Below are positions 52,146 through 62,166 of a stretch of 64,000 nucleotides of DNA, in pieces (position 1 is the stretch's first letter; every line of letters begins with the position of its first letter). Location: the NCBI RefSeq assembly GCF_002854065.1, contig NZ_CP024147.1. One strand, given 5' to 3'. Made by a program: the position numbers and the translations under genes. The DNA comes from Escherichia coli. GTDB taxonomy: Bacteria; Pseudomonadota; Gammaproteobacteria; Enterobacterales; Enterobacteriaceae. The notes under the pieces were generated by a model. It did no database searches and had not been told where the DNA came from. It worked only from the letters and a program-made list of their open reading frames with translations.

Positions 52146-53435
52146 ATGAAAAGAAAAACCATGGGGTGGATTATCGTTTTTCTTCTGTTTATAGTTTACA
52201 TGCTGAACTATATGGATCGTTCTGCATTATCGATTACGGCCCCACTTATCGAAAAAGAGTTAGGCTTTAATGCTGCTGAAATGGGGATAATTTTCAGCGC
52301 ATTTTTCGTTGGTTATGCTTTATTTAACTTCATTGGCGGTTGGGCCAGTGACAAAGTTGGACCCAAAACAGTATTTTTGGTTGCTGCACTGTTGTGGTCT
52401 GTTTTTTGTGGTATGACCGGTCTGGTCACCGGATTATGGACAATGCTTGCCGTACGTGTTTTATTTGGTATGGCAGAGGGCCCGGTTAGTGCAGCAGGAA
52501 ATAAAATTATTAATAACTGGATCTCGCGTAAAGAGTCGGCAACAGCTATCGGTATTTTTAGTGCTGGTTCACCACTTGGTGGCGCTATTTCTGGTCCGGT
52601 CGTTGGCTTGCTGGCAATATCACTTGGCTGGCGTCCGGCGTTTGGGATCATATTTATATTTGGCCTAGTTTGGGTATTACTGTGGTACTTCTTTGTCAGT
52701 GATAAACCGTCAAAAAGTAAACGTCTGGCAGCGGAAGAACGTGTCGATTTCGAAAACCATGACGATATTATTCTAGCCGAAGATGGTAAAGGTACACCTT
52801 CGCTTGGTTATTACATGAAGCAGCCGATGGTATGGGCGACCACGCTGGCATTTTTTAGCTATAACTATATTCTATTTTTCTTTCTTACTTGGTTTCCAAG
52901 CTATTTGAATCATTCATTACACATTGATATTAAAGAAATTAGTATTGCAACTGTTATCCCGTGGTTTATTGGGGCAATTGGCATGGTGTTAGGTGGCGTC
53001 TGCTCTGACTTTATTTATCGTATTACGGGAAATGCCTTACTTTCTCGCCGTTTAATTCTCGGCAGTTGCCTTGCGGGGGCCGCGGTTTGTGTCGCTGTTT
53101 CCGGAACTGTTACCTCTATTGGTAGTGCGATTACGCTGATGTCTGTTTCCTTATTCCTGCTTTATCTAACTGGACCTATTTATTGGGCTGTTATTCAGGA
53201 TGTAGTGCATAAAGATAAAGTAGGTAGCGTAGGCGGTGCGATGCACGGTCTGGCAAATATTTCCGGCATTATTGGTCCATTGGTAACCGGTTTTATTGTC
53301 CAGTTCAGTGGTAAATATGATTACGCATTCTATCTTGCAGGTGCCATAGCAATCATTTCAAGTCTGCTGGTATTCATTTTTGTTAAAAATAAAGGATTGA
53401 AAGTCAATGAAAGTCAAAGCTGTGTACATCAATAA
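52146..53435 (+). CDS. MFS transporter (anion:cation symporter-like; sugar-acid/hexuronate-type)
   Basis: 429-aa polytopic ORF with N-terminal motif LNYMDRSALSITAPLI and 12 predicted helices. Confidence 0.85.
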   Translation: MKRKTMGWIIVFLLFIVYMLNYMDRSALSITAPLIEKELGFNAAEMGIIFSAFFVGYALFNFIGGWASDKVGPKTVFLVAALLWSVFCGMTGLVTGLWTMLAVRVLFGMAEGPVSAAGNKIINNWISRKESATAIGIFSAGSPLGGAISGPVVGLLAISLGWRPAFGIIFIFGLVWVLLWYFFVSDKPSKSKRLAAEERVDFENHDDIILAEDGKGTPSLGYYMKQPMVWATTLAFFSYNYILFFFLTWFPSYLNHSLHIDIKEISIATVIPWFIGAIGMVLGGVCSDFIYRITGNALLSRRLILGSCLAGAAVCVAVSGTVTSIGSAITLMSVSLFLLYLTGPIYWAVIQDVVHKDKVGSVGGAMHGLANISGIIGPLVTGFIVQFSGKYDYAFYLAGAIAIISSLLVFIFVKNKGLKVNESQSCVHQ

Positions 53436-54432
53436 ACCTGGTGAAATTGCTACCCGTCTGGTCGATTATCCAGTAAGAAAAGATAATGAAGTTTTAATTA
53501 AAGTGGATGCAGCGGGAATTTGTGGTTCTGACATCGGTGCATTTCGTGGTACTAACCCACTGGTAACTTATCCGAGAATTATTGGACATGAAGTCACCGG
53601 GATTGTTCTGGAAACCGGTGAGGGGGTACCACAAAATATCAAACAGGGCGACCGGGTTATTGTAGATCCCTATGTTTATTGCGGTCACTGTTATCCATGT
53701 TCTGTAGGTAGAACTAATTGCTGCGAGAACTTAAAAGTCATCGGCGTACATATTGATGGCGCTATGCAAGAAGTGGTTTCGCATCCGGCTCACTTAATTC
53801 ACAAAATTCCTGACAATGTACCGTCAGAGATGGCGCCACTGGCTGAACCCTTAACTATTGCCCTACACGCATTACATCGAGCGCAATTGAAAGCAGGTGA
53901 ACATGTCGTCATTATTGGTGCAGGCGCTATTGGACTTATGGCGGCCCTGAGTTCGTTGAACTATAAAGCAACTCCCATTCTGGTTGATATTGTCGATGAA
54001 CGGTTGCAATACGCGAAATCGCTCGGCGTACCTTATGTAGTAAACTCCGCAAAAGCTAATGTTATTGAGGCAGTGAAAGATATTACACAAGGGACGATGG
54101 CTCAGGTTGTGGTGGAAGCCTCTGGTGCAAATAGCGCAATCAGAAGTACCCTGGATCTGGCCTCATTTGCAGGGCGTATAGCCTATACTGGTTGGCCAAA
54201 GCAGGAAACATCGTTACCAACTAATCTAATTACCTTTAAAGAACTAGATTTACGTGGTTCCCGTACCAGTGCCGGTGAATTTGAAGAAGCCCTGCAAATG
54301 TTATCAACGCTGAATATTAATCCGGCTGATATCGTGAGCAAAGTCGTGACAATAGATGAAGTTCCTGAGGCTGTAAAAGAGTTAGATCAATTTCCGGAAC
54401 GCTATCTGAAAATTAACGTGAAATTCATTTAA
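53407..54432 (+). CDS. Zinc-dependent medium-chain dehydrogenase (sorbitol/idonate dehydrogenase-like)
   Basis: 341-aa ORF with catalytic-zinc motif GHEVTG, structural-zinc Cys cluster CGHCYPCSVGRTNCC and NAD-binding GAGAIG; start overlaps the MFS stop by 29 nt. Confidence 0.85.
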   Translation: MKVKAVYINKPGEIATRLVDYPVRKDNEVLIKVDAAGICGSDIGAFRGTNPLVTYPRIIGHEVTGIVLETGEGVPQNIKQGDRVIVDPYVYCGHCYPCSVGRTNCCENLKVIGVHIDGAMQEVVSHPAHLIHKIPDNVPSEMAPLAEPLTIALHALHRAQLKAGEHVVIIGAGAIGLMAALSSLNYKATPILVDIVDERLQYAKSLGVPYVVNSAKANVIEAVKDITQGTMAQVVVEASGANSAIRSTLDLASFAGRIAYTGWPKQETSLPTNLITFKELDLRGSRTSAGEFEEALQMLSTLNINPADIVSKVVTIDEVPEAVKELDQFPERYLKINVKFI

Positions 54433-54458
54433 TTATAATTAACAAAAATAAAAAGTCT

Positions 54459-54488
54459 GACGCGTAGTGTATTCACTACGCGTTTTTT
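54459..54488 (+). terminator. Intrinsic terminator of the transporter-dehydrogenase operon
   Basis: ACGCGTAGTG-TATTC-ACTACGCG followed by TTTTTT, 27 bp after the dehydrogenase stop. Confidence 0.75.
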
Positions 54489-60329: not shown

Positions 60330-60997
60330 TTTTTTGCCATCAGTTTTCTCTCTTTTGCATATAAAGGAAGAACCTGCAGAATGGCGTGGTTCACAACGGC
60401 CGGCAATGCGAGTTCACCGGATGCTTACCATTCAACGTCCTGAGTGCATGGAAGGTTTCATTATGGATACGGGCAAGCAGCTATCTTTCAACGGTGAAAA
60501 CACCGTTTTTTGTGCTTTTGGTTTGCGTGGGTGAACCGGTATGATAACCGTACCATAGTACTCTGCAGGGCCTGGTTACTGTCGTGGATGACAGGAACAT
60601 AGCGCTGCGCTTCTTAGTTTATCGGGGCTGAGCAGCTTCGGTACGTTGCTCAAGTAGGTCAGGCAGTGGCCGTGAGTATTTAACCATGTCATCATACCCT
60701 GACCTTCACACGCTTCAGCGTAGGTATAGTAAGATGCCCCCCCATGGCCACGGAAATTGCCACGCGTATCCCCGGCACAATACCAGAAAATGAAAGAAGC
60801 GGAGGGAGGATAGACTTGTTACGCCTTCTGCTCTACATAAAAATTTTCCGGAAGCTGTCAGAAAAGAACTAATGACCTTAGGTACATTCATGGAAACGGT
60901 AAAGATTCTCTTACATAACTATTAAATCGACGCTTTATTCTGACGATTATGCGGCGGAAAATCTCTATCGCGTTGCACTCACGTAAACAATTCTCCC

Positions 60998-61447
60998 TTG
61001 CCATGCTGGATATTGATTATCCTCAAGAAAATTAATAATCGTTATAGACATAATTCCGAGGGTAATACACAGAAAAATTTCTCTTCGATGATTTGTGAGC
61101 ATATTCTCATCAGTGCTTATGTTTTCCTCTATGGTGCCGAAGGATTTATTATTTTGTTTGTCGAAACAGAATTATCACACGCTAAAATCATTCTCGAAAA
61201 TCTACGTAACAAAATGGCTGGTTTGCGTATCCAAGCCTTAGTCAGTGAAAGGTTTTCGGTCACGGACAATATTGGCGTCGACGAATATGATTTTTATCCT
61301 GACTATAACCTATTGATAGAAAGGGAGGGCGTTTTATTACGCCAAAAGTCAGGATCGAAACCGGATAGACGTCTTTCTGCTACTGATGACAAACTGCTGA
61401 TTTTTCGTCATTGTCACGCGAAACCAGTAGATCCGAACCAAGTATGA
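60998..61447 (+). CDS. Degenerate GGDEF-like domain fragment (uncertain)
   Basis: ORF contains LYGAEGFIILF in place of the RYGGEEF active-site region plus a GGDEF-like C-terminal pattern (GVDEYD...LLIEREGVLLRQKSG); N-terminal half of the domain absent. Confidence 0.3.
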   Translation: MPCWILIILKKINNRYRHNSEGNTQKNFSSMICEHILISAYVFLYGAEGFIILFVETELSHAKIILENLRNKMAGLRIQALVSERFSVTDNIGVDEYDFYPDYNLLIEREGVLLRQKSGSKPDRRLSATDDKLLIFRHCHAKPVDPNQV

Positions 61448-61494
61448 TATGATAATTCGTCAGATAACTAACGATAAAAGCGAGCGGGAGGCAC

Positions 61495-62166
61495 ATGTTA
61501 ATTCCAGAAATTAAACAGGAAAGGCTCTATCAAAAGATAGCGAATCTTATTATTAAGCTCATCAATGATAATGTCTTTCCGCCAGGTAGTTTTTTACCTC
61601 CAGAGCGTGAGCTGGCGAAACAACTGGGAGTTAGTCGTTCATCGCTGAGAGAAGCTCTTATTGTTCTTGAGATATCTGGCTGGATTATTATTCAGTCTGG
61701 TAATGGGATTATTGTCAGTGATAATAAACACTCTCCAGTCGATTACACTATCGAAGAAATTCTTTATGTCCGTGATTTAGTTGATAGTCATTGTGCCCGA
61801 CTTGCAGCACTGGCTAATAATGAAACAATAATTAATAAAATTGAGTTACTCCATTTCCGAATGGAAAATTCCATTCATGAAAATAATGTGGCTGAATTTT
61901 ATATGCTTGATAAGCAGTTTCATCTGACCATTTCTGAAGCCAGCCATAATAGGGTGTTGTTAGATATGTCACGGATGCTTTGGGAGCAGCGTGTCAATAT
62001 ACCTTATGCTGGGCTGGATAAACGTTCCGGCGATAAGAATGTACTTATCAAACTTAATCAACAGCATAAAGCAATTATTGAGGCGATTCGTGCAGGAAAT
62101 GCAGACAATGCCTTGCAACGGGCACTGCTACATTTGAAGTATGTGCGAGAAATAATTGGTTATTAA
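61495..62166 (+). CDS. GntR-family transcriptional regulator (FadR/FCD subfamily)
   Basis: 223-aa ORF with N-terminal winged-HTH (PPERELAKQLGVSRSSLREALIVLEISGWI) and C-terminal all-helical ligand domain. Confidence 0.8.
   Translation: MLIPEIKQERLYQKIANLIIKLINDNVFPPGSFLPPERELAKQLGVSRSSLREALIVLEISGWIIIQSGNGIIVSDNKHSPVDYTIEEILYVRDLVDSHCARLAALANNETIINKIELLHFRMENSIHENNVAEFYMLDKQFHLTISEASHNRVLLDMSRMLWEQRVNIPYAGLDKRSGDKNVLIKLNQQHKAIIEAIRAGNADNALQRALLHLKYVREIIGY

Follow-up and report, generated by a model that had tools for sequence, protein, structure and literature searches.

The catabolism of L-gulonate has been charted in Haemophilus influenzae Rd KW20, where the cluster HI0047-HI0055 specifies GulD, GulPQM, UxuB, UxuA, UxuR, KdgK, and KdgA (Calhoun et al., eLife 2018, PMC5788505). 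The cluster was validated by enzymology, knockouts, transcript analysis, and isotope labeling; HiGulD converts L-gulonate to D-fructuronate with a kcat/KM of ~1e4, its knockout does not grow on L-gulonate, and UxuB and UxuA carry the product on to D-mannonate and then to 2-keto-3-deoxygluconate (KDG) (PMC5788505). Here, we describe a 64,000-nt stretch of Escherichia coli DNA (contig NZ_CP024147.1 of assembly GCF_002854065.1; "the window" denotes this whole stretch), in which a genomic island carries an operon for a major facilitator superfamily (MFS) transporter and a zinc-dependent dehydrogenase (ADH), and, 7 kb away, a GntR-family regulator gene. We propose, with a probability of roughly 60%, that the three genes were acquired horizontally as a feeder module, that its substrate is a hexonic acid and most likely L-gulonate, and that it came with its cognate repressor and was split by a group II intron and insertion sequences (IS).

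The module shares with the H. influenzae gul cluster a zinc-dependent first enzyme of the medium-chain dehydrogenase/reductase (MDR) superfamily, the D-fructuronate to D-mannonate to KDG logic, and an FCD-type GntR regulator. It differs from that cluster in being mobile, either flanked by IS1 on plasmids or lodged in the argW island, and in having no uxuA, uxuB, kdgK, or aldolase gene of its own, so that the core copies of the host are used. The lgoT-lgoR-lgoD genes of E. coli K-12 (yjjLMN) likewise combine an anion:cation symporter (ACS)-family MFS permease, a GntR-type regulator, and a zinc-dependent hexonate 5-dehydrogenase that feeds the core hexuronate pathway. However, they are paralogues (30.5-36% identity for the dehydrogenase, 28% for the transporter, and marginal similarity for the regulator), their order and orientation differ, and LgoD converts L-galactonate to D-tagaturonate. 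The window module was thus rejected as an LgoTRD orthologue on its low identities and a score below the equivalog cut-off. K-12 RspB (PDB 4ILK, KEGG K08322; E=2.4e-60) is the closest solved structure to ADH and was also the template for the HiGulD model, but it is only 35% identical, and rspB is paired with rspA (annotated in the mandelate racemase/muconate-lactonizing enzyme family) rather than with an MFS gene.

Direct orthologues are found in the MFS-ADH-uxuA-uxuB/GntR locus of Citrobacter and Salmonella enterica, which has the same gene overlap, the same inverted repeat, and a convergent regulator. This locus carries its own uxuA-uxuB between ADH and the regulator; these two genes are missing from the E. 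coli form, from S. diarizonae, and from one S. enterica locus. The pathway type is therefore already known from the gul cluster and the lgo module; what is new is only a mobile variant from enterobacteria that is linked to an MFS gene and has an FCD regulator and a candidate operator of its own, along with a well-resolved history of splitting.

The operon and its probable, separated regulator

The features at the core of this study are the following.

52146-53435, plus strand: MFS transporter, open reading frame (ORF) of 429 aa (ORF list, Pfam)
53407-54432, plus strand: zinc-dependent dehydrogenase (ADH), ORF of 341 aa (ORF list, Pfam)
54459-54489, both strands: bidirectional intrinsic terminator (hairpin at 54459-54484 plus T-run; scores on both strands)
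61495-62166, plus strand: GntR-family, FadR-subfamily (FCD) regulator, predicted cognate repressor (Pfam)

The MFS and ADH ORFs overlap by 29 nt (53407-53435). The RefSeq annotation of strain AMSCJX02 has the same ORFs and overlap, and orthologous locus coordinates show the overlap to be kept in Citrobacter and Salmonella. The terminator hairpin starts 27 nt past the ADH stop codon and is the sole strong terminator-like hairpin of the operon. An earlier note on this DNA, made from the sequence alone, had described the two genes as an overlapping operon with a common terminator, and the coordinates, the 29-nt overlap, and the single hairpin at 54459-54484 agree with it: the same strand, no internal terminator, a conserved overlap, and one downstream terminator qualify the pair as a predicted two-gene operon. 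The regulator gene lies 7,063 nt after the ADH stop codon, and its product would act in trans from 9.3 kb away. It encodes a 223-aa protein with GntR (residues 11-74, E=2.6e-19) and FCD (residues 88-214, E=7.3e-22) domains that scores under the NCBIfam equivalog cut-offs for both LldR (105.8 versus 311) and UxuR (96.6 versus 442). The gene is intact.

That note had also suggested that the distant GntR gene is the separated regulator of the operon, and genomes in which the three genes adjoin were indeed found. In plasmid pPSS-04_1, an intact GGDEF gene is followed by the regulator gene, which converges on ADH-MFS across a 58-nt gap, and the block is bordered by IS1 copies. At least 41 E. coli genomes contain the same 6.5-kb block, some on the chromosome and some on a plasmid, and it was also recovered from 28 plasmids of PLSDB. 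Outside E. coli, one genome per species was considered, and the best 80 loci were scored by tblastn with reference proteins. In all eight Citrobacter and Salmonella loci examined, orthologues of MFS (93% identity), ADH (82-88%), and, in convergent orientation, the GntR regulator (73-77%) are present. In four Citrobacter species, the order is MFS (93%), ADH (87-88%), uxuA, uxuB, and convergent GntR (76-77%). The locus of S. diarizonae consists of MFS-ADH and, 72 nt further downstream, the convergent regulator, with uxuAB missing, and S. enterica shows both layouts. The Sodalis and Erwinia ADH homologues (62% identity) also adjoin an FCD regulator gene, and nine regulator homologues, down to 49% identity, agree with a dehydrogenase homologue in the length of the longest contig, which suggests that the two are on the same contig. 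Linkage of the regulator to the pair in E. coli, Citrobacter, and Salmonella thus speaks clearly against the possibility that they never co-occur, and the window carries a split derivative of such a contiguous locus. Within E. coli, 204 genomes gave a match to the regulator region and 198 to the operon promoter, genome sets that were compared by count alone; the three genes are present in ~3.6% of complete E. coli genomes and are widespread in Salmonella and Citrobacter. As read from these loci, the terminator is ancestrally common to the convergent ADH and GntR genes and has remained with the operon in the window. We predict that the GntR protein represses the MFS-ADH operon as its cognate regulator and acts on it in trans.

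The surroundings of the regulator gene bear on this prediction.

60894-61447, plus strand: truncated GGDEF (diguanylate cyclase) gene, C-terminal part (weak matches to Pfam GGDEF and in NCBIfam; homology to pPSS-04_1 from 60894)
62206-62435, plus strand: left-end fragment of IS4 (IS4 [insG] copies match from ~62200-62206; partial IS4 transposase in the RefSeq annotation of AMSCJX02)

In the contiguous form, the GGDEF gene is intact (467 aa) and immediately precedes the regulator gene, in the same orientation and, in E. coli, at a distance of 95 nt. The regulator might then control the GGDEF gene, or unlinked genes, its proximity to the operon being incidental; its convergent rather than divergent orientation to the operon and the failure to find upstream of its gene the conserved inverted repeat that precedes the MFS gene (see below) would fit such a role. 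Nonetheless, we regard this explanation as highly improbable: no Citrobacter or Salmonella locus has the GGDEF gene, yet regulator and operon still occur together there, and their linkage persists with or without uxuAB and down to 45-55% regulator identity (Sodalis; contig-length matches). The regulator had additionally been credited with a terminator of its own. The hairpin in question (~62253-62292) lies inside the left end of IS4 and was ruled out as a regulator terminator.

Further observations concern the carriage of the contiguous module. It sits within an IS1-bracketed unit of ~8 kb (IS1 included), at 9441-17516 of the pPSS-04_1 locus (L002) and 7142-15217 of the ECCRA-119 chromosomal locus (L005), which contains a LysE exporter, the GGDEF cyclase, GntR, ADH, and MFS genes, and a truncated EAL phosphodiesterase gene. 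The inner junctions of the unit are identical on P1-like plasmids and chromosomes, and no 9-bp duplication was found at its outer ends. Movement of the 7.3-kb LysE-GGDEF-GntR-ADH-MFS-EAL' block as an IS1 composite transposon would fit these identical inner junctions but not the lack of the outer duplication, and is at most a possible mechanism. Carriage by a phage was considered and rejected; pPSS-04_1 has P1-type genes, yet nothing in the phage collection matches the module.

Clade and predicted substrate of the dehydrogenase

ADH carries the ADH_N (E=7e-29) and ADH_zinc_N (E=3e-26) Pfam domains. In a 15-sequence alignment, the catalytic (C39, H61, and E62) and structural (C92, C95, C98, and C106) zinc residues are invariant, as are the Rossmann dinucleotide-binding motif G171-A-G173-A-I-G176 (GAGAIG) and D194. 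These features make ADH a predicted zinc-dependent member of the MDR superfamily; in this fold, an acidic residue such as D194 after the motif would denote a preference for NAD+ over NADP+. The earlier note had called the enzyme a polyol/sugar-acid zinc dehydrogenase. Its domains bear out the zinc dehydrogenase part, whereas a generic polyol type gives way to membership in the GulD clade: ADH is 64-65% identical to the gul-locus enzymes of Gallibacterium and Mannheimia, versus 35% to RspB, 30.5% to LgoD, and 25% to IdnD. The clade comprises homologues from Pasteurellaceae, Aeromonas, Sodalis, Erwinia, and Clostridium at 62-65% identity, and RspB falls outside it in the tree. ADH was consequently rejected as an RspB orthologue on the 35% identity and this placement.

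The genomic context of the Pasteurellaceae enzymes reproduces the components of the validated pathway, in the order uxuA, uxuR, ADH, TRAP-PQM, short-chain dehydrogenase/reductase, kdgK, and aldolase. Structure 4PBQ, which contains bound L-gulonate, is matched by the binding protein adjoining the Gallibacterium enzyme (E=2.7e-171), and the Mannheimia binding protein MhGulP binds L-gulonate with a delta-Tm of 12.1 C. HiGulD itself was compared through four primer-derived peptide tags (34 residues) rather than over its full length, and the clade matches these at homologous positions; its C-terminal tag, HPENYLKINAVF, is matched at 8-10 of 12 residues in the clade, whereas the RspB and LgoD matches are spurious. 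In the four Citrobacter species and S. enterica, ADH is followed in the same operon by uxuA-uxuB, whose products show 92% and 84% identity to their K-12 counterparts. This arrangement makes sense only if D-fructuronate is the product of ADH. The window lacks uxuAB, which almost all E. coli genomes possess (5,403 of 5,426). On these grounds, we place ADH in the GulD clade and predict that it is an NAD+-dependent L-gulonate 5-dehydrogenase (EC 1.1.1.380); L-gulonate is, we infer, the probable substrate of the module.

The same architecture could serve another hexonate or polyol acid, such as L-galactonate (as in lgoTRD), L-idonate, or D-altronate, with the product entering the tagaturonate/UxaB-UxaA or the 5-ketogluconate branch. 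Cross-reaction within the family lends this some plausibility, as LgoD is reported to act on both L-galactonate and L-gulonate (Kuivanen and Richard, 2014). Moreover, among NCBIfam models, ADH scores best with NF007489 (LgoD type), no uxuAB is linked to the genes in E. coli that would fix the product, and many Firmicutes homologues (54-60% identity) are accompanied by none of the reference partner genes of our scan. Yet the NF007489 score of 243.7 bits is far under the cut-off of 376, which together with the identity of 30.5-36% led us to reject ADH as an LgoD. Identity to LgoD (30.5%) and IdnD (25%) is also low compared with the 62-65% shared with gul-locus enzymes, and the closest orthologues (82-88%) stand directly upstream of uxuA-uxuB in the same operon, which fits only a D-fructuronate product. 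A different substrate is accordingly the less probable option, and one that we would judge unlikely.

The transporter is in keeping with sugar-acid uptake. It matches Pfam MFS_1 (E=2e-65) and scores 329.5 bits against TIGR00893, the D-galactonate-transporter subfamily, under the cut-off of 395, which makes it a relative rather than a curated member. It is 28% identical to LgoT over 406 aa. Homology searches for the nearest characterized relatives returned the D-galactonate:H+ symporter DgoT (6E9N, E=4.6e-39) as its closest solved structure, alongside RspB 4ILK for ADH. The MFS stretches "NYMDRS" and "GMAEGP" align with "NYLDRS" and "GIGEAP" of LgoT; the aligned acidic and basic residues of TM1 and TM4 presumably have the functional role described for DgoT. 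We therefore predict an ACS-type, DgoT/LgoT-like permease for sugar-acid:H+ uptake.

Anatomy of the breakpoint

Between the operon and the regulator gene, the window contains the following mobile elements.

54491-54975 (3' limit approximate), plus strand: 5' part of a group II intron (Rfam RF02001, group-II-D1D4-3, at 54600-54751)
54976-60766, no strand assigned: mobile-element pile between operon and regulator (ORF list; RefSeq annotation of the 99.9%-identical AMSCJX02 locus), comprising the next five features, likewise without assigned strand
54976-56132: IS3-family element
56171-56849: remnants of the intron reverse transcriptase
56992-57659: frameshifted transposase
57959-60329: IS66 tnpC/B/A
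~60484-60766: IS21 fragment

Comparison with the contiguous form reveals how this arrangement arose. Positions 11995-13291 of the pPSS-04_1 locus correspond to 60894-62186 of the window (90.5% identity), and positions 13286-15775 correspond to 54488-51987 in inverted orientation (93.7% identity). Since the plasmid maps as two abutting pieces, one of them inverted, the window is a split and inverted derivative of the contiguous module. Plasmid homology stops at 54488, in the T-run of the terminator, and the intron begins with GUGCG at 54491-54495, directly after that T-run; its RF02001 match (54600-54751) scores 89.3 bits (E=3e-17), and an IS3-family element interrupts it. The flanks are thus those described in the earlier note, with IS1 to the left of the operon (51220-51987) and an intron/IS complex to its right (the intron from 54491, then the IS pile). 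The two homology segments overlap by 6 nt at the breakpoint. This overlap was considered as a target-site duplication and rejected; it falls in an A/T run and was therefore taken as alignment ambiguity. The ADH-terminator-intron junction is present in 152 of 5,426 complete E. coli genomes, which makes the split the commoner form in this species.

The sequence of events would then have started with insertion of the group II intron just after the common bidirectional terminator, at what is now the module breakpoint. Insertion sequences would have piled in subsequently, and the regulator half would have been inverted and have come to lie 7 kb away, intact and able to act in trans.

As an observation on the intron itself, it is carried by more than 1,200 genomes, and in other E. 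coli copies the match to the window intron often starts a few bases earlier, in a similar T-run (query positions 56-59). This suggests that the intron may insert in a terminator-targeted manner. Terminator-targeted insertion has been described for bacterial class C introns.

The region upstream of the transporter gene

The DNA just upstream of the MFS start codon holds three features.

51220-51987, minus strand: IS1 copy, 158 nt upstream of the MFS start codon (ORF list and alignment to AMSCJX02)
52056-52083, plus strand: sigma-70-like promoter candidate, TTGATC, 16-nt spacer, TATGAT (consensus scan)
52106-52132, no strand assigned: inverted repeat ATTGTGGTC-N9-GACCGCAAT (window form), a candidate operator that ends just 5' of the ribosome-binding site AAGAGGA

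Alignment of the upstream regions showed that the -35 block of the promoter candidate, TTGATCAC, is conserved in E. coli, Citrobacter, and Salmonella. The inverted repeat sits between this TTGATCAC/-10-like promoter candidate and the ribosome-binding site. Across the three groups, its form ATTGTGGTC-N9-GACCACAAT is invariant amid barely alignable flanks, and the core TGTGGTC-N9-GACCACA is exact and single in 11 of 11 enterobacterial module loci, each time upstream of the MFS gene. Its TGGTC/GACCA half-sites are like those of FadR-subfamily operators, which are palindromes with half-sites of the TGGT...ACCA type; classical FadR/UxuR sites have a spacer shorter than 9 nt. The repeat is a candidate operator of the GntR/FCD regulator, and its location is what one would expect for a repressor. 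Another possibility is a hairpin in the 5' untranslated region (5'-UTR), with an RNA fold of -14.5 kcal/mol (z=-3.46).

The window departs from this invariant form. It has one match to the repeat core, with 1 mismatch, owing to a private A-to-G change at 52128 in the right arm; the G variant was found in 0 of 199 E. coli records with this promoter. The change breaks the DNA palindrome and leaves a U.G pair in RNA. Given ~30 differences between the window and AMSCJX02 over 26 kb, the expectation of one falling within the 18 arm bases is ~2%. IS1 is private as well: the copy at 51220-51987, bordered by the 9-bp target duplication AATAAAATC at 51211-51219 and 51988-51996, is the only structural difference from the otherwise 99.9%-identical AMSCJX02 island. 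The private substitution and the private IS1 158 nt upstream of the MFS gene hint at altered expression in the window strain, or may have come about by chance.

These same changes, together with the intron and IS insertions and the inversion, could mark the window copy as a decaying remnant, in which the operon has lost proper expression or regulation and travels as hitch-hiking cargo of the argW island. The locus is saturated with mobile elements, the adjoining GGDEF gene is truncated, a strain-private IS1 lies 158 nt upstream of the MFS start codon, and the repeat carries a change seen in none of 199 records; in addition, the split copies are too alike (99.9%) for selection after the split to be measured. 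Against decay, all three ORFs are full length and identical to those of AMSCJX02 or different by one residue (MFS). Promoter-like hexamers, repeat, and ribosome-binding site are all retained downstream of IS1, the split form is kept in 152 complete genomes, and a trans-acting repressor need not adjoin its target. The ratio of nonsynonymous to synonymous substitution rates (Ka/Ks) was 0.04 for MFS, 0.09 for ADH, and 0.23 for GntR when window alleles were compared with those of the plasmid, and 0.03 for MFS and 0.075 for GntR in the comparison with Citrobacter; the ADH values span 0.04-0.09. The module genes have therefore evolved under purifying selection (Ka/Ks 0.03-0.23). On balance, decay seems to us a rather poor explanation, and we infer that the split module retains function in the window.

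Proposed pathway and points that weigh against it

The preferred reading of the locus as an L-gulonate feeder module translates into a simple scheme. The MFS permease would import the sugar acid together with a proton, and the GulD-type Zn/NAD+ dehydrogenase would oxidize L-gulonate at C5 to D-fructuronate. The host core would finish the pathway, with UxuB forming D-mannonate, UxuA forming KDG, and KdgK and Eda acting thereafter. Because host core enzymes do the downstream steps, the E. coli version would need only a transporter, one enzyme, and a regulator. The GntR/FCD repressor probably binds the inverted repeat between the promoter and ribosome-binding site of the MFS gene and would be released by the substrate or by D-fructuronate.

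Several points weigh against this scheme. The gul cluster takes up its substrate through a TRAP system, whereas the window module has a single MFS permease, and the window regulator belongs to another FCD lineage, ~33% identical to UxuR of the gul cluster. H. influenzae is absent among the best 80 loci and among the 120 closest relatives of the Gallibacterium enzyme, so HiGulD may be less than ~59% identical; the 64% identity to syntenic orthologues is only just over the ~60% level that the authors of the pathway study deem safe. A search of the accessible literature yielded no experiment or paper on this enterobacterial module. With regard to regulation, no second copy of the repeat was found in the window or the module loci, upstream of the regulator gene or elsewhere, and covariation cannot separate an operator from a 5'-UTR RNA hairpin because the repeat never varies. 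The E. coli regulator, directly downstream of a GGDEF gene, could also have gained another role. Finally, the low Ka/Ks values mostly reflect history before the split, since carriers of the split form are 99.9% identical, and are no proof that the split module still works.

A more ambitious version of the scheme pictures a mobile adaptor cassette that connects one transporter and one enzyme to the core hexuronate pathway, adds host-derived L-gulonate to the substrates of E. coli, and moves on P1-like plasmids in IS1-flanked units as well as with the argW island. The window strain would be a rewired case, probably derepressed by the repeat mutation and IS1, with the regulator still acting in trans over 9 kb of mobile DNA. 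Taken as a whole, this picture is speculative, and we give it little credence.

If the assignment as an L-gulonate module is true, it provides a specific and testable function for genes that RefSeq labels "MFS transporter," "zinc-binding alcohol dehydrogenase family protein," and "FadR/GntR family transcriptional regulator." In animals, L-gulonate is formed as an intermediate of the glucuronate (uronate) pathway, so the trait could be a small niche factor for gut, avian, and extraintestinal strains. The locus also exemplifies a minimal catabolic add-on that leans on core metabolism beyond the first step, and a regulator and operon parted by a terminator-targeting intron and IS traffic with neither destroyed. 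It further calls for caution with annotation methods that infer regulons from adjacency alone. These general points are not conceptually new.

Island setting and other observations

The island is located at the tRNA-Arg gene downstream of yfdC and adjoins an integrase gene. Its segment in the window (37223-64000) is 99.9% identical to the AMSCJX02 island, in contrast to the core flank at 1-37000 (accD ... yfdC, tRNA-Arg), which is ~97% identical, with a yfc fimbrial stretch at 83%. From this difference, the island appears to have been recently shared between E. coli lineages.

Beyond the module, the minus strand at 43270-49094 looks like a complete Shango anti-phage system according to PADLOC models, to which RefSeq gives generic labels: SngA TerB-N at 46785-49094 (E=6.5e-103), SngB at 45465-46781 (E=1.3e-187), and the SngC helicase at 43270-45468 (E=7e-277). 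Also on the minus strand, a gene at 38768-41128 that is intact in AMSCJX02 (786 aa) appears in the window as two separate ORFs, 38768-39247 and 39317-40696; one of the few single-nucleotide polymorphisms of this stretch has probably disrupted it recently. Rfam reports a match to isrC, an Hfq-binding small RNA, on the plus strand at 62703-62825 (150 bits); as it lies at the 5' end of an IS3-family orfA (ORFs 62671-63018 and 62838-63884), it is probably a feature of the IS family rather than a free-standing small RNA gene. A second IS1 copy, 99.3% identical to that at 51220-51987, occupies 23184-23951, close to the yfc fimbrial genes in the core-genome portion of the window.

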